A stretch of 43,617 bases of DNA. Source: Minisyncoccota bacterium. Its GTDB lineage: Bacteria; Patescibacteriota; Minisyncoccia; Phycocordibacterales; UBA6065. The stretch spans positions 1 through 43,617 of the forward strand of contig JBAZUA010000001.1 in NCBI GenBank assembly GCA_041661645.1, given 5' to 3'. This document shows, piece after piece, positions 300 through 40,764 of this stretch. Both the position numbers and the translations under genes were made by a program. Position 1 is the first letter of the stretch. Each line of letters opens with the position of its first letter. The notes below the pieces were generated by a model, which was not told the DNA's origin, ran no database searches, and was given only the letters and a program-made list of their open reading frames with translations.

Positions 300-391
300 G
301 GGATAGGTGAAGATCGGCTGCAATGCCGTTAAAAGCAAGTCCGAGTTCATCGACAAACACAATAGAATCGGTATAAGATGTCCAGTGCGGA

Positions 392-469
392 GTCTCCTGC
401 AGGAGACACAAGGAAAGGCTTCGGCCTTTCACCAAACCGGGCGATGGGGGCTAGTCCCCCCATCGCCCG
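392..469. repeat. Cluster of palindromes: perfect 16-bp GTCTCCTGCAGGAGAC (392-407), GAAAGGC-TTCG-GCCTTTC hairpin, and a 13-bp-arm GC hairpin (438-469)
   Basis: Inverted repeats read directly from the sequence. Confidence 0.85.
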
Positions 470-507
470 TCCGCGCATTATAAAAGTAATTTCGACTAGG
501 AAATTAT

Positions 508-1326
508 ATGGATATAAAACCATTTAGGCAGTTTTTAGTTGCGCGTAAGGGGCTCATGCCGGTGACGGTGAAAGGGTATGCGGAGGCGGTCAAGAGAATT
601 ACCAGGGTCATCGGCGAGCACCCGTCGGATGAGACGATCGAATCGTTCGTCAACGTCCTCTATACGTCGGAGAAGTCGTATCACCACAAATTAAACACGG
701 TCCTCGCCCTCGAGAAGTATCTCGAGTTCATCGGGCGATCGACCAGGTTCGGCCGACAGCGAAAGCCGAAGCCGATTATCAAGAACACCCTCACGGAAGC
801 AGAGGTAACGAAGCTAATTTTTAACTGCAAGAACGAGCGAGAGAGGGCAATCGTCGCGCTCTTCGCCTACTCGGGCATCAGAAACCAGGAGCTCTGCAAT
901 CTCAGAGTGCGTGATTTCCTATGGTCGCAAAACGCGATCAGGGTCATTCAGGGAAAGTTCGCGAAGGACGGCATCTCGGAGATACCGCCAGAGTGCTCGA
1001 AGATCGTCCTGGACTATCTGAACCTATACCCGAGGACGGCCGATGACCACCTGTTCACAACGCTCAGGCGAAAGGCACAGATGGACACCAGGGACATGAG
1101 GAAGATCATCAAGGTCGTCGCCAAGAGGGCGAAGATGACCAAGCGCGTCTTTCCCCACCTCCTGCGCCACTCTCTCGCCGCTAACATGATCCTGCGCGGA
1201 GTCGACGTGATCTCCCTGAAGAATCAGCTCCGTCACGCATGGCTCGAGACAACGCTGCATTACGCCAATTCTATTGTGTTCGTCGAACGAAACCGTTATC
1301 AGAAGTTCGCGCCTAGCTACGTATAA
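508..1326 (+). CDS. Tyrosine recombinase (XerC/D-like, 272 aa)
   Basis: Catalytic motifs SGIRNQEL (R), GKFAK (K), HLLRH (H-x-x-R) and LRHAWLETTLHY (H...Y). Confidence 0.93.
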   Translation: MDIKPFRQFLVARKGLMPVTVKGYAEAVKRITRVIGEHPSDETIESFVNVLYTSEKSYHHKLNTVLALEKYLEFIGRSTRFGRQRKPKPIIKNTLTEAEVTKLIFNCKNERERAIVALFAYSGIRNQELCNLRVRDFLWSQNAIRVIQGKFAKDGISEIPPECSKIVLDYLNLYPRTADDHLFTTLRRKAQMDTRDMRKIIKVVAKRAKMTKRVFPHLLRHSLAANMILRGVDVISLKNQLRHAWLETTLHYANSIVFVERNRYQKFAPSYV

Positions 1327-1331
1327 AACAA

Positions 1332-1730
1332 ATGAACAAAACAGCAGGATACATAATCGCGGCGGGAGGCCTCTTATCGGCGAGCCTTTTCATGTTCGAC
1401 TTCTCCGGCGTCTCAGATGCCGAGCTGAAGCAGTACATCCAGGACTCGCTCGCCCGGGGGTGCCGGCCGATCATCGACGTCTGCACGTCTGACTGCGGCT
1501 CGGCCGAGCCTCAGCAGAACGTCACCGAGGAGTGCATCATCCCGAGCGGAGACATCATCAAGGTCTCATACACCAGGGCCCAGAACGGGTACGTGAAGCT
1601 CGCGCAGGACCTTGGCATCAGCGCCACGAACACGTCACCGCTCGAGCTCCCCGACAGGATCAGGGAGAAGCTCGAGGATAGCGGAGTCTCTGTCGAGCCT
1701 CAAAAGGAGTCTTTCGTCATCACGGACTAG
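1332..1730 (+). CDS. Hypothetical secreted or membrane-anchored protein
   Basis: Hydrophobic N-terminal segment and four Cys. It starts 5 nt after the integrase stop. Confidence 0.7.
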   Translation: MNKTAGYIIAAGGLLSASLFMFDFSGVSDAELKQYIQDSLARGCRPIIDVCTSDCGSAEPQQNVTEECIIPSGDIIKVSYTRAQNGYVKLAQDLGISATNTSPLELPDRIREKLEDSGVSVEPQKESFVITD

Positions 1731-1741
1731 CTCGTTGCGGT

Positions 1742-1769
1742 TCCCGGCCGATCGACAGATCGGCCGGGA
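1742..1769 (+). terminator. Strong 12-bp hairpin after ORF 1332-1730 (terminator-like, U-tract weak)
   Basis: TCCCGGCCGATC-GACA-GATCGGCCGGGA. Confidence 0.5.
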
Positions 1770-1794
1770 GACGGAACCAGTTATTTGAAAAACA

Positions 1795-1926
1795 GCGGTA
1801 GGGAGAGGGCCGGGGAAGTTCTTCGTCTGAGGATTCCATAGCTCGTATTCGTTCCAAACTCAATGCGTTGCAGGCCAGGCGCGACCACCCAATCCCCGGT
1901 GTCGCCCTCGGCCCTGTCCCTGTCGT
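1795..1926 (+). ncRNA. Candidate structured RNA (long closing stem with G-U pairs enclosing smaller hairpins)
   Basis: 1795-1814 GCGGTAGGGAGAGGGCCGGG pairs with 1906-1926 CCTCGGCCCTGTCCCTGTCGT, including several G-U wobbles. Confidence 0.4.
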
Positions 1927-1952
1927 TCATAAACCATCAATCCACATGATCC

Positions 1953-2183
1953 ATGTGCAAAGTCACGTGTCGGGCATGCGGCCGGCCCTTTGCGGTCGTC
2001 GGAATAGTTCGTCGCGGCGAAAGCTGCTTCTGTTCGGTAAAGTGTTTAAGAGACAACCTCGATGTCAGAGAGGAAACCCAAAACGCCGTGGCGATTGAGT
2101 TTCATCCGAAGGCTCCCGATGTCGTCCCGTTCCACCATCAAGCGTTCCACGCGCCGGGCTTGCTCGGCCTCGTGGGGCAATGA
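1953..2183 (+). CDS. Small zinc-finger protein (CxxC...CxCSxxC, TRASH/MYM-like)
   Basis: CRACG and CFCSVKC motifs. Confidence 0.6.
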   Translation: MCKVTCRACGRPFAVVGIVRRGESCFCSVKCLRDNLDVREETQNAVAIEFHPKAPDVVPFHHQAFHAPGLLGLVGQ

Positions 2184-2243
2184 AAGGAGGTGATCTTTCT
2201 CACCCGAGCCTAACCCGCTCGGTGATGGCGGTAAGTCCGCTTC

Positions 2244-2267
2244 AAGGAGACTACGGTCTCCTTTTTT
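2244..2267 (+). terminator. Intrinsic terminator
   Basis: AAGGAGAC-TACG-GTCTCCTT followed by a T-run. Confidence 0.8.
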
Positions 2268-2328
2268 GTCGGTAAAGTTTTGATAAATAAAAAGTAAAGA
2301 AAATATAAAGGCGATGTTGACTTTTTTC

Positions 2329-2356
2329 TTGACGTCGGCTCAATGCGGAGTAGTAT
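2329..2356 (+). promoter_or_regulatory. Sigma70-type promoter for the second integrase
   Basis: TTGACG-N16-TAGTAT. Confidence 0.6.
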
Positions 2357-2376
2357 CGGAGCCATTACAAGTTAAT

Positions 2377-2582
2377 AGTCCCGGAGCCCGAAAGGGCCCT
2401 GCCGCGAGGCATATTTCACCCCTGGGCCTATCTTGTGAGCATCGTACGCCTTCTGACGATTTTACTTTTAGTTTAATCTCACAGGCGTATAATGCCATTA
2501 GTAACTCCCTGAAAAGGGTTGTCTGCGAGCGATCGCCGGCGTTCAAAGTTACGGCACGGGCCCGGGGGTGAAATACCGGGCT
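2377..2582 (+). ncRNA. Candidate ~205-nt multibranched structured 5' leader or RNA upstream of integrase 2
   Basis: Nested stems 2377-2384/2576-2582, GCCC-GAAA-GGGC, 2411-2428/2559-2575 (~17 bp), 2432-2439/2478-2485, and a possible pseudoknot 2445-2451/2483-2489. Confidence 0.5.
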
Positions 2583-2591
2583 TTGTGTTAT

Positions 2592-3764
2592 ATGTTCATA
2601 AAGTTTCAAGAAAAGTACGAGGAATATTTCGAGTATCTGAGGAAGAGCGGAAAGACAGACAAGACGATCAGCGAGCACAGGAGGATGCTATGCGACCATT
2701 TCCCGGAGCGCATCAAGACGATGCGCCTTGCCAAGATGTCTAAATCAGACATCGCAGATCTGCTCGAGGCGGGAAGGCAGCATGGCGCCCATGGGCCGAC
2801 GCGACTCATCGTCGTGCTGAGGCGGTATTTCAACTTCATGCAGTCCGAGCTCGGCATGGAGATGCCCTTCGACTGGCGGGATGTCAGAGTCCCGATGTCG
2901 AAGCACAAGGAGCAGCCGGTATTCGAGGACCAGGAGATAGCCCTGCTCTTCAAGACCATGGAGGACCTCGAGCCCGGGAGCGTTCATGGCAAGCGGATGA
3001 ACTGGACGATGAGCACTCTCTTCGAGACGCTGTTCGCCACCGGCATGCGTATCCACGAGCCGCTCATGCTGAAGAGGTCGCAATTCCCGCAGATCAAGGC
3101 ATCGAAGGAGCTAGTGATCCTGGGCAAGGGAAGCAAGGAGCGAAAGATATTCTTCACCGATCGGGCGATTGAGAAGCTCGAGGAATACCTCGGCCGGAGG
3201 AATGACACGAGCGACTCCCTCTTCGTAAACTCCTGCGGGGAGCCCTTAATAATGGCGACGGCCCGAAGCTATTTCGAGCGCTTCAAGCGAAAGCTCCGCG
3301 AGCTCGGGCACGAGGAGATAGCACGGAAGCTGAAGAGCCATACGTTCAGGCGCACGCTATCGACGCACCTCTTCGAGAACGGTGCCGACATCAAGACCGT
3401 GCAGAAGATCCTCGGTCATGAGTCCGAGCGCACGACGATCAAGTGCTATATCCGGGCGAACGAGAAGAGGGCGAAGGTGATCCATACCGCCATCCTATCT
3501 AAGATACCTTTCGAGAAGCTCGCTACTCGGTACAAGGAAGTCCCCGACGGATCGGTTCACGTCCGCATCACGGAGAATGGCGGCCGGTGGATGCCGATGG
3601 ACGAGCAGGCATCAGAGGAGCTCAAGGGAATGGTGTCGATGATGAGGGATCAGTTCGCATCGCCGGACGAGAAGCGAATCCTGCAGAAGCTATTTAGCTC
3701 TCTCGGTCAGATATTGGAGCCAGTGACGCCTGTGAATCTCGAGCTTGAGAATGTTGGCGGGTAA
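2592..3764 (+). CDS. Tyrosine recombinase/integrase with a C-terminal extension
   Basis: Motifs TGMRIHE, GKGSKER, HTFRR and LGHESERTTIKCY. ATG 2592 is preferred over GTG 2568, which lies inside the RNA stem. Confidence 0.93.
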   Translation: MFIKFQEKYEEYFEYLRKSGKTDKTISEHRRMLCDHFPERIKTMRLAKMSKSDIADLLEAGRQHGAHGPTRLIVVLRRYFNFMQSELGMEMPFDWRDVRVPMSKHKEQPVFEDQEIALLFKTMEDLEPGSVHGKRMNWTMSTLFETLFATGMRIHEPLMLKRSQFPQIKASKELVILGKGSKERKIFFTDRAIEKLEEYLGRRNDTSDSLFVNSCGEPLIMATARSYFERFKRKLRELGHEEIARKLKSHTFRRTLSTHLFENGADIKTVQKILGHESERTTIKCYIRANEKRAKVIHTAILSKIPFEKLATRYKEVPDGSVHVRITENGGRWMPMDEQASEELKGMVSMMRDQFASPDEKRILQKLFSSLGQILEPVTPVNLELENVGG

Positions 3765-3984
3765 TGATAAAATCTATGCATGAAAGGGCCGAAGCCAAAC
3801 ATAAAAAAAGACCTCGAGATCCTCGCGCTCAAAGCGCAGGGCCTTAGCTTTAGAGCCATCGCTAAGAAGAAAAATCGCGACGTGAAGCGCGTGTATGTGG
3901 CGTACCAGAGGGCAAGGACGCTAGTGGGTGTTGGCGGGTTATCCACAGTTAAGTAACAAGTGGGGCTTTGACGTGTTGGCGGGT
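3752..3984 (+). repeat. Three exact copies of TGTTGGCGGGT (3752-3762, 3929-3939, 3974-3984); DnaA-box TTATCCACA at 3939-3947
   Basis: Read directly from the sequence. Confidence 0.9.
3780..3956 (+). CDS. Small basic HTH DNA-binding protein (58 aa; candidate excisionase or regulator), absent from the supplied ORF track
   Basis: MKGPKPNIKKDLEILALKAQGLSFRAIAKKKNRDVKRVYVAYQRARTLVGVGGLSTVK. The GLSFRAIA...VKRVY segment fits an HTH pattern. Confidence 0.7.
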   Translation: MKGPKPNIKKDLEILALKAQGLSFRAIAKKKNRDVKRVYVAYQRARTLVGVGGLSTVK

Positions 3985-3995
3985 AGAGATATACT
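3968..3995 (+). promoter_or_regulatory. Sigma70-type promoter with a TGTTGGCGGGT repeat in its spacer
   Basis: TTGACG-N16-TATACT. Confidence 0.7.
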
Positions 3996-4001
3996 TATAA
4001 C

Positions 4002-4158
4002 GTTCCTCGAAAATATCATACAGATCGTGGACGAGTTCCGAGATGATTTTGTGTGATGTTTCGATTTTTATGCAGTACTATTTCGGATCAAAGAAGGGCG
4101 GAGACGCACTTCAGTGGTCTAAGAGATAGTTTCAAAAGAGCCCGAAAGGGCTCTTTTG
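4002..4158 (+). ncRNA. Candidate ~155-nt ncRNA of unknown family
   Basis: Promoter upstream, hairpin 4007-4064 and hairpin 4077-4130 (GAGA tetraloop, G-U pairs), then a terminator. No convincing ORF inside. Confidence 0.6.
4133..4158. terminator. Bidirectional intrinsic terminator
   Basis: CAAAAGAGCCC-GAAA-GGGCTCTTTTG. Confidence 0.85.
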
Positions 4159-4236
4159 TTATGGGACCACCGTTTATTTTTATTTACTTCAGGAACAGCT
4201 TTTTGTCGGTGTAAATCGCTTGGCAAACAAAAGCCC

Positions 4237-4547: not shown

Positions 4548-5072
4548 ATGAACGAAAACGAAATAAAAGATACCGAAAAAACCGAGGTGGCGGCACCTAT
4601 CGCCCCTGAAATTTCAGAATTGGACAAGGTTAGGGCCGAGCGCGACGAATACCTCGCTGGCTGGCAACGCGCCAAGGCTGATTTTGCCAATGCCAAGAAG
4701 CGCGCCGACGAGTCTCTCGTCGAATACCGCAAGCTCGCCACCGAGGGGGTCATCGAGGAGATCATACCTGTGCTCCAGAGCTTCGAGATGGCATTCGCCA
4801 ACAAGGAGTCGTGGGAAAAGGCAGACAAGAACTGGAGGGCCGGCGTCGAATACATACATGGCCAGCTTAAATCGGTTCTCGAGCAGAATGGCCTCAAGGA
4901 GGTGAACCCGCTTGGCGAGGAGTTCAACCCAAATCGCGACGAGGCCATCGAGTTCGTGCCGGTCACGGACGTCTCTCAGGGCAATAAAATCGTGGGCGTG
5001 GTCTCAAAGGGATATAGCCTCAACGGCAAAGACATCCGTGCCGCAAAGGTGAAGGTGGGGGAGGTGAAGTAA
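4548..5072 (+). CDS. grpE: Nucleotide exchange factor GrpE
   Basis: RAKADFANAKKR, FNPNRDEAI and KGYSLNGKDIRAAKVKV motifs; lies upstream of dnaK. Confidence 0.96.
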   Translation: MNENEIKDTEKTEVAAPIAPEISELDKVRAERDEYLAGWQRAKADFANAKKRADESLVEYRKLATEGVIEEIIPVLQSFEMAFANKESWEKADKNWRAGVEYIHGQLKSVLEQNGLKEVNPLGEEFNPNRDEAIEFVPVTDVSQGNKIVGVVSKGYSLNGKDIRAAKVKVGEVK

Positions 5073-5134: not shown

Positions 5135-5386
5135 ATGAAGAAGAAAGAATATCTAACAATGGACCGCTTTGATAAATTCTCTGATCTCATGATGGAGAGC
5201 TTCGCACATCTCAATGTGAAAATTGATGAGAGCATAAAGGCTTCCGAAGAGAGGCTTGGCAAGAGAATTGACTCTCTCGAGTTTAAAGTCGACACAGGTT
5301 TCAGAGAGGTGAATAATCGTATTGACGATCTCGCCGAAACCAAGGTTTCGAGGCATGAGCAGAAGCCGTGGAACTTCGGGTGGTAG
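5135..5386 (+). CDS. Small coiled-coil hypothetical protein
   Basis: Heptad-like pattern (RLGKRIDSLEFKVDTGFREVNNRID). A -10 TATACT lies 6 nt before the ATG. Confidence 0.7.
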   Translation: MKKKEYLTMDRFDKFSDLMMESFAHLNVKIDESIKASEERLGKRIDSLEFKVDTGFREVNNRIDDLAETKVSRHEQKPWNFGW

Positions 5387-5443
5387 CACTTGAAAATGCC
5401 CCCGCGACTGGGTAATATAGGGTATACTAAAGGGAATAAAACG

Positions 5444-5749
5444 ATGGCAAACCTCATTAAACGACCTGAAATAAGGATAATTTCCAAGGATATCACCCTG
5501 GCAACAGGCGAACTCGTGCGCGCCTTCTTTGCCGTGATGAATATCGAGGGTCGGACCGAGATCAGGTTCCTCGGAACCAAGCCTCTCGAGGCCGAGATGG
5601 CCCAGGCAGACGCGACGCCTCTTCTTGCCGCGCCCATCTGCCATGTCTGCGTCGAGCAGGAGGCCGTCATGTTCCGATCGGTCTTCTTGCCGTTCTTCTC
5701 GCTTGACCTCTTCGCAAATCAGCTTGCCCGTGCCCCGAGCCTAGCCTAG
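5444..5749 (+). CDS. Hypothetical protein ending in ...LARAPSLA (candidate RAPP-like arrest peptide)
   Basis: ORF downstream of a TTGAAA-N17-TAATAT promoter (5390-5418) and directly upstream of dnaK. Confidence 0.65.
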   Translation: MANLIKRPEIRIISKDITLATGELVRAFFAVMNIEGRTEIRFLGTKPLEAEMAQADATPLLAAPICHVCVEQEAVMFRSVFLPFFSLDLFANQLARAPSLA

Positions 5750-5815
5750 ATTCCAGGCGCCCCTCAAGCGCGATTTTCGCGTGGCGCATTATCATCTAGC
5801 TAACTCAATTCACAC

Positions 5816-7723
5816 ATGTCAAAAATCATAGGCATCGACCTCGGTACCACGAACTCAGCTGTGGCCGTCATGGAAGGCGGCGAGGCAAAGATCCTCGAGA
5901 ATGCCGAGGGAATGCGAACGACCCCGTCCATCGTCGCCCAGTCAAAGACCGGCGAGCGATTGGTGGGCGTCGTCGCCAAGCGACAGTCGGTCACCAACCC
6001 AAAGAACACCATCTACCAGATGAAGCGATTCATCGGCCACAACTGGGACGAGTCCCTCGTGCAGAAGGACATCGCCTCGGTTCCGTTCCAGACCCGCAAA
6101 TCAGACAATGGCGGCATCGAGATACAGATGGGCGACAAATGGTATAGGCCAGAGGAGCTCTCGGCCATGGTCCTCTCCAAGATAAAGGCCGACGCAGAGG
6201 CGCGCCTGGGCGAGCCTGTAACCGAGGCCGTCATCACCGTCCCGGCATACTTCAACGACTCGCAGCGACAGGCAACCAAGGATGCCGGAAAGATCGCGGG
6301 ACTCGACGTGAAGCGAATCATAAACGAGCCTACGGCCGCGGCCCTCGCCTACGGATTCAACAAGAAGAAGGACGAGAAGATCGTCGTCTTCGACTTCGGA
6401 GGCGGAACCTTCGACATCTCGGTTCTCGAGGTGGGCGATGACGTCATCGAGGTCAAGTCGACCGATGGAGACGCCCATCTCGGTGGAAAGGACATCGATC
6501 AGAAGATCATGGGGTACCTCGCCGACGAGTTCCAGAAGGAGAACGGCATAGACCTCCGCAAGGACGTCCTTGCCCGACAGCGACTCGATGACGGCGCCGA
6601 GAAGGCAAAGATCGAGCTCTCGACCGCGGTAGAGACCGAGGTCAATATCCCATTTGTCTCAGTCGGATCCGACGGCCCTCTTCACCTCGTGAAGAAGATC
6701 ACTCGCGCAAAGCTCGAGGAGCTCACGTCGGAATTCGTCACCCGCGCCATGGAGATCACCCGACGCGCCATGGAGGCGTCGCCGTTCAAGGTTGACCAGA
6801 TAAACGAGGTGGTTCTCGTCGGAGGCCAGACCCGCATGCCCGCCATGCAGAAGGCCGTGGAGGACTACTTCAAGAAGAAGCCGCACATGGGCGTCAATCC
6901 TGACGAGGTGGTCGCCATCGGCGCCGCCATCCAGGGAGGCGTGCTCAAGGGCGACGTCAAGGACATTCTCCTGCTCGACGTCATCCCTCTGTCATTCGGC
7001 ATCGAGACAATGGGAGGAATATCAACCAAGCTCATCGAGAAGAACACCACCATTCCGGCTTCCAAGTCGCAGGTATTTTCGACCGCGGCCGACAATCAGT
7101 CGTCCGTCGAGATCAACGTGGTACAGGGAGACCGAGCCATGGCTCATGACAACAAGTCCCTCGGACGATTCATCCTCGACGGCATTCCGCCGGCACCGCG
7201 AGGCATCCCTCAGGTAGAGGTGACCTTCGACATCGACGCTAACGGAATACTCAACGTCAAGGCCAAGGAGAAGTCGACGGGCAAGGAGCAGTCGATCAAG
7301 ATACAGGGATCTTCGGGACTCTCGAAGGACGAGATAGAGAAGATGAAGCAGGACGCCGAGACCCATGCCGCCGATGACGAGAAGAAGAAGGCTGAGGTCG
7401 AGGTCCGAAACATCGCCGAGCAGACCATTTATGCGGCCGAGAAGGCAGTAAAGGAAAACGGCGACAAGGTGACCCCCGAGATCAAGTCAGACGTCGAGGC
7501 CAAGATCGTCGACCTCAAGAAAGCCAAGGAAGGCACGGACATCGAGGCGGTCAAGAAGGCGACGGACTTCCTCAACGTCTCCATGGGCAAGATAGGCGAG
7601 GCCATGATGAAGGCGCAGCAGGCTGCCGGTGCGAATGCCGGAGCCGGTGGTGCCGCAGAGGGAGCGGCGGGCGCGGAGCCAAAGGATAACGTAAAGGACG
7701 CTGAATTCACCGAGAACAAGTAA
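5816..7723 (+). CDS. dnaK: Chaperone DnaK (Hsp70)
   Basis: [29 protein letters not shown] and [11 protein letters not shown] motifs. Confidence 0.99.
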
Positions 7724-8036
7724 CACCGCCACGGCCTCACGGTTGCGCGCACCGGGGCGCGCTGGTTGCGGGAGCTGTATCGGTAGCACGTCGAAACCTG
7801 ACTAAACAAAAAGCAGACACTCATCCCTCATGACCGATGGTCGTGGGGGAGATATAGTGTCTGCTTAAAATAAAAAGGAGGGAATCACGTGGCGTGAGAC
7901 CCTCCGGGAATGCGGGAGTTTAATCCGTCATTCGGGAACTCTGGAGCGTCGGTTAAAGGGCGAGGTTCTTCATAGGCGTGTGTCCGAGTGTCTGCAGTTG
8001 ATGGATCCAAGGTTACTCCAAAAGCATATCATATAC
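7724..8036 (+). other. Unusually long, hairpin-rich dnaK-dnaJ intergenic region
   Basis: Stems 7811-7821/7856-7866 with inner 7824-7835/7839-7850, GGAGGG/CCCTCC (7877-7905), and further stems to ~7950. Confidence 0.6.
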
Positions 8037-9167
8037 ATGAAAAAAGACTATTACGACATACTCGGCATAAAAAAGGACGCGTCGCAGGACGAGATAAAGA
8101 AGGCGTTTCGAAAGGCCGCGCACGCGCATCATCCCGACAAGCAGGGCGGCAACGCCGACAAGTTCAAGGAGGCGAACGAGGCCTATGGAGTGCTTTCCGA
8201 TGACAAGAAACGCCAGCAGTACGACCAGTTCGGCCATGCGGGCGCCAACATGGGTGGTCCGGGCGGACAAGGCGGAGCGGGCTTCAACCCGAACGACTTC
8301 GGATTCGACTTCTCAGGCTTCCAGCAGGGCGGAGGGTTCCAGGGCGGCTTCGGCCAGAACGGCGGTGTTGAGTTCGACCTCGGAGACATATTCGGGGACG
8401 TCTTCGGCGGGGGCAGGCGCTCCCAGCCCAAGCGCGGGCATGACATATCCGTGGACGTCGACCTTTCCTTTGAAGAGGCAGTATTCGGCGTGGAGAAGTC
8501 ATTTCGCATACACAAGACGTCGACCTGCCCCGACTGTTCGGGCAGTGGTGCCAAAGCAGGATCAAAGATGAAGACCTGTGACGTCTGCAAGGGAGCGGGC
8601 AAGGTGAAGGAGATGAAGCGATCGATATTGGGCACCTTTGCCACCACCAAGACCTGTGAGAATTGTCACGGGGCCGGCAAGGTTCCCGAGGAGAAGTGTC
8701 ACACCTGCCACGGCTCGGGCGTGCTCGAGCGCGATCAGGAGATAAAGGTGAAGATCCCGGCAGGACTCGAGAATGGCGAGACCGTGCGATTGGCCGGCGG
8801 CGGCGAGGCTGTTACCCATGGCCAGTCAGGCGATCTCTATATCAAAGTCCATGTCGATGAGCATTCGATATGGCGCAAGGAGGGACATAACCTCGTCACC
8901 GAGCTCGATGTAAAGCTCTCTGACGCGCTCCTTGGCGCGGCGTATCCGCTCAAGACCCTCGACGGCGACATCAGTCTCAAGATCCCCGAGGGCATAGCCT
9001 TCGGCGAGGTCCTGCGCGTGAAGGGCAAGGGCGTTCCGATAAACGGCACAGGCCCGACGGCAAAACACCGCGGAGACATATTGGTAAAGGTGAACATCGT
9101 CATGCCAAGGCGTCTCTCGAAGGATGCGAAGAGGGTGGTGGAGGGGCTCAAAAACGAGGGGGTCTAG
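8037..9167 (+). CDS. dnaJ: Chaperone DnaJ
   Basis: J-domain HPD, G/F-rich linker and four CxxCxGxG repeats. Start taken at MKKDYY. Confidence 0.98.
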   Translation: MKKDYYDILGIKKDASQDEIKKAFRKAAHAHHPDKQGGNADKFKEANEAYGVLSDDKKRQQYDQFGHAGANMGGPGGQGGAGFNPNDFGFDFSGFQQGGGFQGGFGQNGGVEFDLGDIFGDVFGGGRRSQPKRGHDISVDVDLSFEEAVFGVEKSFRIHKTSTCPDCSGSGAKAGSKMKTCDVCKGAGKVKEMKRSILGTFATTKTCENCHGAGKVPEEKCHTCHGSGVLERDQEIKVKIPAGLENGETVRLAGGGEAVTHGQSGDLYIKVHVDEHSIWRKEGHNLVTELDVKLSDALLGAAYPLKTLDGDISLKIPEGIAFGEVLRVKGKGVPINGTGPTAKHRGDILVKVNIVMPRRLSKDAKRVVEGLKNEGV

Positions 9168-37983: not shown

Positions 37984-38172
37984 ATGGCACACGCAAAGAC
38001 AGTGCATCCAAACGTGGGCGCGCTCCTGCCGTTCAATCGCATCGTGACCTATTACGGAAACTTCTATTCGAAGTCGATGAGCGCCCTCGGAGAGTGTCCC
38101 CCGACGTCATGGCACAGGGATCGGCGGGGGAGGAGGGCCTCTATCGACCGCGAATGCCCGACGACCAGATAA
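37984..38172 (+). pseudogene. Internally deleted remnant of a paralogue of gene 39637-40764
   Basis: Three homologous blocks (start, HPNVGALLPFNRIV.YYGNFYSKSM, QGSAGEEGLYR.RMPDDQI) are joined across two deletions with frameshifts. Confidence 0.85.
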
Positions 38173-39636: not shown

Positions 39637-40764
39637 ATGGCGCACACAAAGAAAGCACCCTCCAGACGCTCCCATCTCATCATACTGGGATTCATATCAA
39701 CCCTCCTCCTGGCAGGCGCCGCCTTTGCCATCGCGGACAAGAGCGGTAAGTTCACCAAGGAATACGAGCAGGTCTTCAAGCCCCCCGTCCTCGACAAGGC
39801 GCTCTACGACCTCAAGCTCAATCAGCTGGCGCACATAATCGTCTCGACCAGCACGGCCTCGACGACAATTCCCGGCATGATTTTGGCCACAAGCAGCGCG
39901 ACGTCGACACCCGCGCAAAAGCCAACGGCATCAACGACGCCTTCGCTCTGGCCCGCAAAGACCGTGTACCCAAACGTTGGGGCCCTCCTGCCGTTCAATC
40001 GCATCGTCGCCTATTACGGAAACTTCTATTCGAAATCGATGGGCGTCCTCGGACAGTATCCCCCCGACGTCATGCTCAAGATGCTCATGGAAGAGGTGTC
40101 CAAGTGGCAGCTCGCTGACCCGACAACCCCTGTCATACCAGCCCTCAATTACATTGCCGTGACGGCGCAGGGATCGGCCGGCGAGGAGGGTCTCTACAGA
40201 CTGCGCATGCCTGATGACCAGATACAGAAGGCGATCGATCTCGCCAATCAGGTGAATGGCATCGTCTTTCTCGAGATACAGGTCGGGCAGAGCACCATCG
40301 AGAAGGAACTACCCGTCTTCGATAAATACCTCGCCCTGCCGAACGTGCATCTGGCCCTCGATCCCGAGTTCTCCATGAAGATGGGCAGGAAACCCGGCAT
40401 ATTCATCGGCACCATGGACGCGACCGAGATAAACTGGGCCATCGCCCATGTCGGCGAGATAGTCCGGGCAAACGGCCTGCCGCCGAAAATAGTCATCATC
40501 CATCGCTTCACCGAGAACATGGTCACTAACTACAAGAGCATACTGCCAACCCCGGACGTACAAGTGGTCATGGACATGGACGGGTGGGGAACCGCCAGGC
40601 TCAAGGCAAAGGTGTATGACATGGTCATCACCGAGGAGCCCGTCCAGTTCACGGGAATCAAGCTTTTCTACAAGAATGACCTTAAGACGCCAAGCACGGG
40701 CCTAATGACGACGAAAGAGGTGCTCGACCTCATGCCGCAGCCGAGCTACATTCAGTATCAATAG
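39637..40764 (+). CDS. Secreted or membrane-anchored hypothetical protein with a Thr/Ser-rich linker
   Basis: N-terminal TM helix, low-complexity linker, then a globular domain (RIVAYYGN, HLALDPEF, MDMDGWG). Confidence 0.85.
   Translation: MAHTKKAPSRRSHLIILGFISTLLLAGAAFAIADKSGKFTKEYEQVFKPPVLDKALYDLKLNQLAHIIVSTSTASTTIPGMILATSSATSTPAQKPTASTTPSLWPAKTVYPNVGALLPFNRIVAYYGNFYSKSMGVLGQYPPDVMLKMLMEEVSKWQLADPTTPVIPALNYIAVTAQGSAGEEGLYRLRMPDDQIQKAIDLANQVNGIVFLEIQVGQSTIEKELPVFDKYLALPNVHLALDPEFSMKMGRKPGIFIGTMDATEINWAIAHVGEIVRANGLPPKIVIIHRFTENMVTNYKSILPTPDVQVVMDMDGWGTARLKAKVYDMVITEEPVQFTGIKLFYKNDLKTPSTGLMTTKEVLDLMPQPSYIQYQ

Follow-up and report, generated by a model that had tools for sequence, protein, structure and literature searches.

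The tyrosine recombinase gene int2 is preceded by a member of an undescribed leader RNA class specific to the Int2 family (~2363-2591 of the window, the whole 43,617-nt stretch of DNA analysed), and this leader most likely attenuates Int2 expression. On balance, we read positions 1 to ~4130 as the right end of an integrative element of phage-like character, with the host grpE-dnaK-dnaJ genes just downstream. Judging from relatives, the host genome is probably of Patescibacteria type. We somewhat favour a composition of two independent tyrosine-recombinase modules and four structured spacers of four different kinds (Table 1). Taken as a whole, the element end, the two modules, the Int2 leader as an attenuator and the att end are, by a modest preference, the best explanation of the region.

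An earlier sequence-only reading had taken all four spacers to be structured. Their folds are indeed more stable than those of 200 dinucleotide shuffles each, with z scores (+ strand / - strand) of -4.95 / -4.7 for spacer 1 (306-469), -3.6 / -1.3 for spacer 2 (1795-1926), -6.7 / -4.95 for spacer 3 (2377-2582) and -4.8 / -2.1 for spacer 4 (4007-4130). The same reading had seen G-U pairs indicative of RNA. The + strand bias that such pairs should produce is seen in spacers 2, 3 and 4 but not in spacer 1. The reading's preference for RNA over DNA stands for the Int2 leader but not for spacer 4, which is not purely RNA and probably serves, in part at least, as a site of DNA recombination.

Table 1 Features at the proposed right-hand end of the element
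Feature	Position	Strand	Description
Short hairpin CGGC-TGCAAT-GCCG	315-328	+	3' of tail-fibre-like gene; start of homology with sister contig L005
Int1 promoter-like site TCGACA-18-TAAGAT	350-379	+	Overlaps inverted-repeat left arm (350-376)
Int1 5'-UTR hairpins	392-407, 413-430, 438-469	+	438-469: 13-bp arms, 6-nt loop
Small hairpin AATTTC-GACTAG-GAAATT	488-505	+	Covers Int1 GGAAA ribosome-binding region; read directly from sequence
Int1	508-1326	+	XerA-like tyrosine recombinase; large phage-context family
Inverted-repeat right arm	1260-1286	+	Within Int1 codons for HYANSIVFVE
orf132	1332-1730	+	Small protein, N-terminal hydrophobic segment
Long G+C-rich hairpin	1734-1777	+	Terminator-like, 3' of orf132
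Spacer 2	1795-1926	+	Multi-branched structure, 17-bp closing stem
orf76	1953-2183	+	Possible small zinc-ribbon protein, CxxC...CxxxC
Intrinsic terminator	2244-2263	+	Closes upstream unit
Int2 leader promoter TTGACG-16-TAGTAT	2329-2356	+	sigma70-type
Int2 leader RNA	2363-2591	+	5' three-way junction, variable middle GNRA-loop hairpins, 3' terminator hairpin
5' three-way-junction domain	2376-2428	+	P1 and two GNRA-capped hairpins
Junction strand b (TATTTCACCCC)	2412-2422	+	Complementary to 2565-2575
Terminator hairpin GGGCCCGG-[GGGTGAAATA]-CCGGGCTT plus TGTGTTAT	2558-2591	+	Ends at Int2 ATG; loop is strand b'
Int2	2592-3764	+	XerD/XerA-like two-domain tyrosine recombinase; ~90-aa conserved C-terminal extension
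58-aa helix-turn-helix ORF	3780-3956	+	Weak HTH_38 / sigma-70 region 4 matches, below Pfam cut-offs
Outward-facing promoter TTGACG-16-TATACT	3968-3995	+	
Hairpin A, spacer 4	4007-4064	+	Many G-U pairs
Hairpin B, spacer 4	4077-4130	+	3' strand is the core motif
Core motif ACGCACTT-CAGTGG-TC-TAAGAGATAGT	4104-4130	+	Proposed att core, element right end
Bidirectional terminator hairpin	4134-4157	.	Flanking host-side DNA; read from sequence

Two tyrosine recombinases from separate families

Both recombinases match PF00589 (Int1, E 5e-23; Int2, E 3e-29). In alignments of Int1 to archaeal XerA (5hxy, E 2e-24) and of Int2 to XerD (1a0p, E 2e-14), the Arg, Lys, His-x-x-Arg, His and Tyr are in register with the catalytic residues, confirming the initial assignment of both as intact enzymes. 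XerA and XerD are their best structural and sequence matches, and like the simple Xer-type recombinases (XerA, XerD, XerH, XerS), Int1 and Int2 are short, two-domain proteins lacking an arm-binding domain. The palindromic site adjoining the Int1 gene recalls the xerS/difSL arrangement. Unlike Xer/dif systems, however, the genes lie in a phage-like context rather than a housekeeping locus, the core motif of Int2 is not a dif-like 11-6-11 palindrome, and Int2 has an extra C-terminal extension. The family alignment places the Int2 start at ATG 2592, not GTG 2568, so that spacer 3 extends to 2591.

Int1 and Int2 belong to separate, unrelated families that usually occur apart. The Int1 family has > 200 members, found in the order tail-fibre-like gene, Int1, small ORF, holin, amidase, with Int2 absent; the Int2 family comprises ~25 members and is found without Int1. 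Together with the differing nature of the four spacers, this argues against the single two-recombinase module that had been envisaged. A related possibility is that Int1 and Int2 cooperate as a Tn554/RIT/BIM-style two-recombinase transposon, bounded by the direct repeat TAAGGGATAGGT (298-309) / TAAGAGATAGTT (4120-4131). The homology between the window and L005 covers exactly 312-4130, the repeat matches at 10/12 positions at both break points, and a third relative, in run X5, has the same gene order. We nevertheless consider this the least probable of the readings weighed here. Besides the separate occurrence of the two families, the tail-fibre-like gene and Int1 stay syntenic in both L026 and L027, and the left-end hairpin recurs in L026, so that the left break is better explained by a variable fibre C-terminus. 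Such a repeat would arise by chance with a probability of ~0.03 (rough estimate), and no comparable repeat lies at the bounds of L003-type units.

A leader RNA class specific to the Int2 family

We examined 17 distinct Int2 upstream regions from Paceibacterota-, Bacteroidota- and Verrucomicrobiota-labelled DNA, and 16 of them contain a promoter and a 200-400-nt leader with a three-way junction, several GNRA hairpins and a terminator. An equivalent promoter was present in 20/21 Int2 loci by pattern search (that of L018 was read by eye), and its position in the window places the leader start at 2363. A covariance model of the leader has only one match in the window (2376-2428, 45.3 bits, E 3e-11); each Int2 locus has a single match, and none lies near Int1 homologues. 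The leader matches no Rfam family, in agreement with the earlier suggestion of an undescribed recombinase-plus-RNA module.

The structure is well conserved. Folding of the 5' domain alone recovered the three-way junction in 14/15 sequences, 84.5% of cells are paired (67.7% in shuffles), and the covariation score of 0.541 (0.254 in shuffles) was reached by 0/500 shuffles, with every slid register scoring lower. RNAalifold, applied to eight leaders, independently recovered P1, both arms, two further GNRA hairpins and the terminator. The leader carries four GNRA tetraloops, and comparison of the window with a 94%-identical sister revealed four compensatory changes. A terminator hairpin with a U-tract, detected automatically in 15/17 leaders, has covarying stems and ends 2-25 nt 5' of the start codon. 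Its loop forms 7-11 contiguous Watson-Crick pairs with the junction strand in 12/12 lineages (mean 8.8, as against 5.2 when the two are combined non-cognately), with compensating changes that give ten distinct sequence versions.

The sequence-only reading had associated both recombinases with structured RNA and proposed covariance models of their flanks. The association is upheld for one of the two, Int2, which has a dedicated, conserved and covarying RNA with its own promoter and terminator. The spacer 2 structure was not found near other Int1 homologues. In three metatranscriptome runs, only a few contigs covered the genes and none covered the leader. The sub-lineage of L004, L009 and L010 has a short, different leader, indicating that the RNA is dispensable to the enzyme.

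The leader as a putative attenuator

The leader probably controls the amount of integrase made. Since a fully base-paired loop is incompatible with its own short stem, we propose an attenuator. The junction strand, which would be single-stranded in the three-way junction, is complementary to the 8-11-nt loop of the terminator. If this strand captures the loop as it is being made, the terminator/start-site hairpin could not close, and int2 would be transcribed and translated; if the junction strand is withheld, transcription would stop and a leader of ~220 nt alone would be made. The junction contains no conserved unpaired bases, which makes a protein more likely than a metabolite as the withholding factor; Int2 itself or a directionality factor may play this part. 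The overlap between the terminator and the loop-junction helix is 1-3 nucleotides at most, and we argue on steric grounds that the two are mutually exclusive. Bacteroidota-type leaders have 2-4 spare loop nucleotides, so that a simultaneous pseudoknot is conceivable there.

These spare nucleotides would also be compatible with an unlikely alternative, in which the leader is a stand-alone ~220-nt trans-acting small RNA (for example, a protein sponge or a regulator of immunity or lysogeny), the loop-junction helix is a structural pseudoknot holding the RNA in a compact fold, and int2 is expressed by incidental read-through alone. The strong promoter and terminator of its own, and the four GNRA tetraloops, which are typical of compact folded RNAs, are consistent with this role. 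However, the leader always abuts the Int2 start codon, and int2 appears to depend on read-through because no promoter for it was found inside the leader.

The attenuator, our preferred reading, resembles known attenuators and riboswitch-type leaders in its succession of promoter, structured 5' domain, variable linker and intrinsic terminator directly 5' of the ORF. As in ZTP-like riboswitches, which have a long-range pseudoknot into the expression platform, a strand lying far from the terminator hairpin is complementary to part of it. The Int2 leader differs from these systems, apart from its lack of an Rfam match, in that it has no conserved unpaired core for a ligand pocket, its competing strand pairs with the terminator loop rather than the stem, and the regulated gene is an integrase. 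In lambda int tI / sib retroregulation, the integrase output of a temperate element is likewise set by RNA structure beside att, and integration alters what adjoins that structure. However, sib lies 3' of int and acts via RNase III, whereas here a 5' leader driven by its own promoter is the main structure, and a separate promoter serves the downstream hairpins.

We regard as very improbable that the RNAs are recombination cofactors of Int2, acting as a scaffold or guide in att recognition or synapsis. As with the bridge and seek RNAs of IS110/IS1111, structured non-coding RNA is found at a mobile-element end beside a recombinase. The association of the two non-coding units with the Int2 family is tight, sister elements occupy different sites sharing only ~10 nt and a nearby terminator, and the junction strand and loop differ between lineages like an address. 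Yet cognate leader-att pairs are no more complementary than non-cognate ones (duplex energies of -24.8 vs -25.0 for the top strand and -29.1 vs -27.1, sd 4.4, within noise, for the bottom strand), and the att region contains no match to strand b. The RNA-assisted targeting on which the first reading had speculated is thus unsupported. In contrast to IS110/IS1111, guide-target and guide-donor complementarity was not found, the variable strands pair with each other, and the chemistry is that of a tyrosine rather than a DEDD/serine enzyme. Moreover, Int2 has an ordinary Xer-like fold in which no RNA-binding domain was recognised, and one sub-lineage lacks the leader.

The proposed right end of the element

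Downstream of the Int2 gene lies a second structured stretch, likewise driven by a promoter. Positions 3968-4130, with an outward promoter, hairpins and a conserved core motif, may well be the att end. Promoters scoring at least 10/12 were found within ~110 nt downstream in 13/17 loci. The core motif, conserved over 22-24 nt, occurs 3' of Int2 in 1-2 copies in at least 14 loci, and paired copies are always 55 nt apart. The window and L005 are 97-100% identical to ~4120 and unrelated beyond 4130, the break falling within the core motif; for hairpin A, which is identical in L005, this comparison is uninformative. L003, L006 and L007, ~90% identical across a 2.34-kb unit, also lose their similarity at this place in the motif. 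We infer that strand exchange takes place at this motif. Its right half in L006 is part of a long flanking palindrome and hence host-derived, and every other locus has a different terminator at the position equivalent to 4134-4157. In Bacteroidota-type loci, the genes 3' of the motif are syntenic between relatives, which indicates that the motif is not a host junction there; the element's left end was looked for but not found.

Could the structures in general act as folded single-stranded DNA rather than RNA, either as signals for replication or, like integron attC and the attP hairpin of CTX phage, as recombination sites? Each Int2 motif unit forms a hairpin, the 3' strand of which is exchanged where homology breaks off, and comparative methods do not separate single-stranded DNA from RNA (PMC5737381). 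In its geometry, the 13-6-13 palindrome (438-469) corresponds to a recombinase core site. Like attC sites, the repeated hairpin units have a conserved loop and base sequence and variable stems, with the exchange point at the base of the 3' strand. We judge this quite improbable, however, as the leader has GNRA loops, a U-tract terminator and a conserved promoter, which indicate RNA, and as homologues differ in the spacer length of the Int1 palindrome (5 to 7 nt). In contrast to integrons, no R''/R' boxes were seen, there is no cassette array, a promoter drives the stretch that contains the units, and Int1 and Int2 are matched best by Xer-type enzymes, not IntI.

Int1 expression signals and the region between the recombinases

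Positions 306-469 contain ordinary Int1 expression signals, namely a promoter and 5'-UTR hairpins, one of them over the ribosome-binding site. Equivalent promoters (TTGACA/TTGACT) precede Int1 in L026 and L027. The inverted repeat is complementary at 23/27 positions and is kept in L005 and L026. The hairpin at 315-328 shows one compensatory G-C to C-G change in L005 and is also found 5' of the L026 Int1 homologue. That at 438-469 has compensatory changes in L027 and L028, with one G-U pair in L027, and is missing from L026, while equivalents of the 488-505 hairpin are present in L027 and L028.

Spacer 2 is a lineage-restricted structured element, found in close relatives only. Of its 9 substitutions relative to L005, 7 fall in unpaired positions (27% of positions) and the 2 in stems keep the pairing; an identical haplotype is present in runs X3 and X5. 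Family searches with orf132 and orf76 gave no match. orf132 is syntenic with a 126-aa ORF that follows Int1 homologues, orf76 is nearly identical in L005, and the 58-aa helix-turn-helix ORF is 99% identical there.

Two separate recombinases upstream of grpE

The window is a piece of bacterial chromosome, and upstream of grpE it carries, on the + strand throughout, the 3' end of a tail-fibre-like gene, the tyrosine recombinase Int1, orf132, orf76, a second tyrosine recombinase (Int2) and a 58-aa helix-turn-helix (HTH) ORF. Both recombinases matched PF00589 (Pfam E 5e-23 for Int1 and 3e-29 for Int2). The best alignments were to archaeal XerA (5hxy, E 2e-24) for Int1 and to XerD (1a0p, E 2e-14) for Int2, in which Arg, Lys, His-x-x-Arg, His and Tyr align with the catalytic residues; the sequence-only reading of both enzymes as catalytically intact is thus borne out. 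Alignment of 25 Int2 relatives placed the start of Int2 at ATG 2592, not at GTG 2568. An AlphaFold2 model of Int2 (pLDDT 81.6) is predicted to adopt an ordinary two-domain fold of the Xer/lambda type, with helical core-binding and catalytic domains and with XerA, Tn1549 Int, XerD, XerH and lambda Int as top Foldseek matches. The core-binding domain is the first element of the model, which lacks an arm-type DNA-binding N-terminal domain, and a C-terminal extension of ~90 residues, modeled with moderate confidence, found no match when searched alone. Int1 is short (272 aa), and its alignment to XerA begins at residue 20, so that a lambda-type arm-binding domain is also absent from this protein. 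Chain 14 of PDB 9i5v (401 residues), deposited as RaiA, matches both integrases (E ~1e-10), and its name looks wrong.

Coordinates of features in the window, with folding z-scores for the four spacers
Feature	Position	Strand	z, + strand	z, - strand	Remark
Tail-fibre-like gene, 3' end	to 299	+			
Spacer 1	306-469		-4.95	-4.7	
Short hairpin after upstream gene	315-328				One compensatory change in L005
Int1 promoter	350-379				Conserved in L026 and L027
Last 5'-UTR hairpin	438-469				13-6-13
Int1	508-1326	+			
orf132	1332-1730	+			
Spacer 2	1795-1926		-3.6	-1.3	
orf76	1953-2183	+			
Leader promoter	2329-2356				
Spacer 3	2377-2582		-6.7	-4.95	
Leader strand b	2412-2422				
Terminator-hairpin loop (b')	2565-2575				
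Int2	2592-3764	+			
58-aa HTH ORF	3780-3956	+			
Outward promoter	3968-3995				
Spacer 4	4007-4130		-4.8	-2.1	
Terminator hairpin beyond motif	4134-4157				
grpE	4548-5072				
dnaK	5816-7723				
dnaJ	7980-9167				

The two proteins belong to families of very different distribution. The Int1 family comprises 225 proteins at E <=0.001, and each of the best 120 is at least 50% identical. Its gene order (tail-fibre-like, Int1, small ORF, holin, amidase) is kept, without Int2. The Int2 family is rare: 5.8 billion proteins contain ~25 members (55-61% identity, with a further one at 94%), encoded without Int1 on DNA labelled Paceibacterota, Bacteroidota and Verrucomicrobiota and in metagenomes; MAG labels may be wrong. 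No Int2 relative was found among IMG/VR viral contigs, and GenBank phages contained nothing above 33% identity to either recombinase. The two co-occur in three places only: the window, its sister contig L005 and one contig of sequencing run X5. Int1 and Int2 are separate modules, and a multi-recombinase transposon (Tn554, RIT, BIM) was rejected because the genes do not travel together. An integron (IntI plus attC) was rejected as well: there is no cassette array, RYYYAAC/GTTRRRY boxes were not seen in the hairpins, and IntI4 is a distant match only. Xer/dif resolution of chromosome dimers was rejected since Int1 homologues lie between tail-fibre-like and lysis genes, which is not a housekeeping context; the absence of the 13-6-13 palindrome in spacer 1 from the closest Int1 homologue (contig L026) also counts against this role.

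A covarying leader RNA precedes Int2

Each spacer around the recombinases was folded against 200 dinucleotide shuffles on both strands. The + strand z-scores of all four (-3.6 to -6.7) agree with the structure that the sequence-only reading had seen there, and comparison of the two strands confirmed a + strand bias in three of the four. The window has no match in Rfam 15 at the gathering score, and the four spacers gave none below E = 5 except weak matches to tpke11 (420-499, 24 bits against a cut-off of 43) and rimP-leader (4103-4185). The leaders of seven other Int2 loci matched no Rfam family.

Spacer 3 is predicted to hold an undescribed, strongly covarying leader RNA class of the Int2 family, and literature searches found no description of this leader. 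The comparison set consisted of 17 distinct upstream regions, a lower bound, and 16 of these have one architecture in common at low sequence identity. At 200-400 nt 5' of the Int2 start codon there is a promoter of the sigma70 type (TTGACx, 16-18 nt, TAnnnT), which a pattern match detected in 20 of 21 Int2 loci; that of L018 was identified by eye. The leader then contains a UUAAU box rich in A and T, a three-way junction whose stem P1 surrounds a pair of short hairpins (with GNRA loops in most), a single-stranded segment of 8-11 nt (strand b), a variable middle with more GNRA hairpins, and finally a G+C-rich hairpin; the U-rich tract behind this hairpin stops 2-25 nt short of the ATG. The terminal hairpin and U-tract were detected by script in 15 of the 17 leaders. 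Across DNA labelled as three phyla, this rare integrase family is accompanied throughout by a large leader RNA with many helices; the one departure from this family-wide leader is the sub-lineage L004/L009/L010, which has a different, short leader.

The terminator stem covaries among lineages (GCCCGG/CCGGGC, CCCAG/CUGGG, CCCGC/GCGGG, CCGCC/GGCGG, CUCACUG/CAGUGGG, CCCACC/GGUGGG). Strand b is complementary to the terminator loop in every lineage, with 7-11 contiguous Watson-Crick pairs and a mean of 8.8 in cognate versus 5.2 in non-cognate combinations. This loop-junction helix exists in ten distinct sequence versions, including UAUUUCACCCC/GGGGUGAAAUA in the window and UAUAUUAACCC/GGGUUAAUAUA, GAAACGAC/GUCGUUUC, UGAGACAA/UUGUCUCA and AAAAACCAA/UUGGUUUUU elsewhere. 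A MAFFT alignment of the joined 5' and 3' domains was dropped because registers differed among lineages; the loop-junction helix was therefore tested by script, and the nested helices on a model-guided alignment. In this alignment, which is biased towards the structure, 84.5% of cells were paired versus 67.7% in shuffles, and the covariation score was 0.541 versus 0.254. None of 500 shuffles reached the observed pairing or covariation value, all slid registers scored lower, and all five pairs of P1 showed double changes. RNAalifold, run on a plain MAFFT alignment of eight leaders, independently recovered P1, both arms, two GNRA hairpins and the terminator; pairs formed between the U-tract and a GCACAA further upstream lengthen this terminator. 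Comparison of the window with L005 shows four fully compensatory pair changes in the leader.

Folded alone, the 5' domain gave the same three-way junction in 14 of 15 sequences. The sequence-only reading had proposed a covariance model from the flanks of homologues; such a model of the 5' domain matched once per Int2 locus, for the most part in training sequences, with a single match in the window (2376-2428, 45 bits) and none near Int1 homologues. In clarity of covariation the leader equals many accepted riboswitch classes, but it has no ligand-type core.

The only Rfam matches in related loci, both outside the spacers and neither in the window, were a LOOT RNA (RF03000, 78 bits; L006:5409-5526, - strand) within the 2.3-kb Int2 unit of Paceibacterota-type loci, a short distance 5' of the leader promoter, and a DUF805 RNA (RF03081, 80 bits; L022:1353-1421, - strand) within the element of L022.

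Possible action of the leader

As in an attenuator, the leader has a promoter upstream and an intrinsic terminator directly before the ORF. No promoter with legal spacing was found inside the leader, although TTGACG and TATAAT boxes occur there, and since the hairpin abuts the start codon, int2 depends on read-through or on opening of the hairpin. From geometry, a loop of 8-13 nt that is paired over 8-11 nt would be incompatible with a closing stem of 6-9 bp unless linker nucleotides were spare. On this view, the loop-junction helix should compete with the terminator. It could nucleate before the 3' half of the terminator stem is made, and access to strand b would then decide between a short leader RNA and int2 mRNA. 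It is also possible that the leader is a stand-alone RNA in which loop-junction helix and terminator form simultaneously as a pseudoknot, since Bacteroidota-type leaders have 2-4 spare nucleotides in the loop.

The invariant columns of the 5' domain lie in stems only, and the junction strand varies freely, so a metabolite pocket or a ribozyme core is unlikely. Accordingly, a metabolite riboswitch was rejected for the absence of conserved unpaired ligand-pocket nucleotides, and a ribozyme reading of the three-way junction for the absence of conserved junction nucleotides. A protein (Int2, the HTH protein or another factor of the element) or a purely kinetic switch would be the more likely effector, and we regard the leader as a good candidate for a new attenuator, either protein-responsive or kinetic. 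To our knowledge, control of the integrase level in temperate and integrative elements is understood in detail for only a few model phages.

A probable terminator-adjacent att end downstream of Int2

Identity between the window and L005 is 97-100% over 3760 to about 4120, and beyond 4130 the two sequences are unrelated. The homology break lies within the motif ACGCACTT-CAGTGG-TC-TAAGAGATAGT (4104-4130), which is found downstream of Int2 in at least 14 loci with the consensus CAC(Y)TCAGTGG(TC/AG)nAAGMGnTAR. Each copy of this core motif forms the 3' half of a hairpin unit with a covarying stem (AGCGCT/AGCGCT, AACGCT/AGCGTT), and double-copy loci from five independent lineages have their core motifs exactly 55 nt apart. 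The contigs L003, L006, L007 and L013 have only a 2.34-kb unit in common (~90% identity), which contains a reverse-strand 163-aa ORF, the LOOT RNA, the leader, Int2 and two motif units. Directly after GTGGTC(A/T)AAACGATA, the sequences of L003, L006 and L007 diverge; the contig of L013 stops within int2, so the comparison of divergence points covers these three. In L006 the right half of the motif belongs to a long palindrome in the flank, which indicates that this half derives from the target.

Directly beyond the motif there is a different intrinsic-terminator hairpin at every locus, often bidirectional, and 13 of 17 loci have a promoter with a score of at least 10 of 12 in the interval from the int2 (or HTH) stop to the motif. 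From these sequence comparisons we conclude that the spacer 4 stretch is a putative recombination site, probably transcribed as well, and that insertion would favour a short nAAGMGnTAR beside a terminator. Sharp break points at a short motif that always adjoins a terminator hairpin hint at a rule of target choice for an Xer-like enzyme. In Bacteroidota-type loci, synteny between relatives continues past the motif (Rep_O-like, methylases, ERF, second integrase), and the core motif there looks like an unsplit attP-type site. When the left end was sought for the 2.3-kb unit of the L003 type, repeats between the ends, direct or inverted, matched at no more than 8-9 of 11 positions.

Downstream of the Int2 unit, grpE is found in the same orientation at 3 of ~17 loci (the window, L012:3753-4334 and L022:6885-7505), two of which have distant Int2 relatives. 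This suggests that the vicinity of grpE is a preferred insertion region. The motif resembles a heat-shock operator upstream of grpE, but a CIRCE reading was rejected, as the window contains none when up to 3 mismatches are allowed. The window also lacks tRNA genes, which leaves a tRNA target without support. GTGGTC (4114-4119) and GACCAC (4166-4171) form an inverted pair around the terminator hairpin of the window, and a similar AGTGG...CCACT pair surrounds a large hairpin after the motif in L012 (3600-3730); the target may be a larger palindrome around the terminator.

At the ends of the stretch shared with L005, TAAGGGATAGGT (298-309) and TAAGAGATAGTT (4120-4131) are identical at 10 of 12 positions, with a chance of ~0.03 by rough estimate. 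Int1 and the tail-fibre-like gene are syntenic, which speaks for a variable gene end as the explanation of the left break. In L018, a 331-aa ORF (5172-6167) with HTH_38/HTH_32 matches, resembling an IS30-type transposase, has been inserted after Int2 and has pushed the core motif to 6363-6381. The HTH ORF of 58 aa, which occupies the equivalent place in the window, could be the remnant of a similar insertion.

No support for RNA guidance of recombination

The sequence-only reading had speculated on RNA-assisted targeting. RNAduplex was run for each leader against each att site of 12 loci on both strands, and the energies showed no cognate preference (top strand, mean -24.8 cognate versus -25.0 non-cognate; bottom strand, -29.1 versus -27.1, sd 4.4). 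Neither strand b nor its complement has a partner in the att-end region, and the variable strands of the leader, b and b', are complementary to each other. Simple base-pairing of leader and att in the manner of a bridge RNA is therefore unsupported. Recombinases of the IS110 type consist of a DEDD (RuvC-like) and a Tnp domain, whereas Int1 and Int2 are PF00589 tyrosine recombinases; IS110 bridge/seek RNA loops are complementary to target and donor, whereas the leader has no such complementarity to att.

We consider it very improbable that the Int2 family requires flanking RNA, be it the pseudoknotted leader, a promoter-driven att-end RNA with the core motif, or both, to work. Such RNAs could be an assembly scaffold or a recogniser of terminator-adjacent targets, and if this were true, Int2 would be the first RNA-dependent tyrosine recombinase. 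The proposal of a recombinase-plus-RNA module is partly supported: the recombinase-linked RNA is real, in the form of the covarying leader of Int2, while a module of two recombinases and RNA has no support, as the families occur apart, and nor does guidance. The novelty is the leader RNA class together with the unusual terminator-adjacent att site of a rare Xer-like integrase family.

Spacers 1 and 2 and other features of the window

Spacer 1 is a composite of the short hairpin after the upstream gene, the Int1 promoter and three 5'-UTR hairpins. The last of these, missing from L026, has compensating changes and one G-U pair in the Int1-type contigs L027 and L028, and a small hairpin 3' of it covers the Int1 ribosome-binding site. 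Conservation of spacer 2 extends to L005 and to runs X3 and X5 only, as one haplotype. Of its 9 substitutions, only 2 are in paired positions (73% of sites), and neither disrupts its pair; by a binomial calculation, such a low number at paired sites has a probability of ~0.002, and spacer 2 is probably a real + strand structure.

A 27-nt inverted repeat (350-376 versus 1260-1286; 23 of 27, with transitions as the only mismatches) has one arm in the spacer of the Int1 promoter and the other in the Int1 codons for HYANSIVFVE. It is present in L005 and L026 and not in L027 and L028, and could be a binding or inversion site of Int1 or the relic of an inverted gene fragment.

Three RNA-seq runs gave few contigs only, all over genes. 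Exact Int1 occurs on a sole other contig (L029, 6834 nt), which starts at window position 98 within the tail-fibre-like gene, and several Int2 contigs stop a few hundred bases beyond the core motif; assemblies seem to be interrupted at both of these variable places. Two direct repeats (111 and 67 nt, 82-88% identity), ~2 kb apart at 37992-38171 and 39954-40224, probably represent neighbouring paralogous genes.
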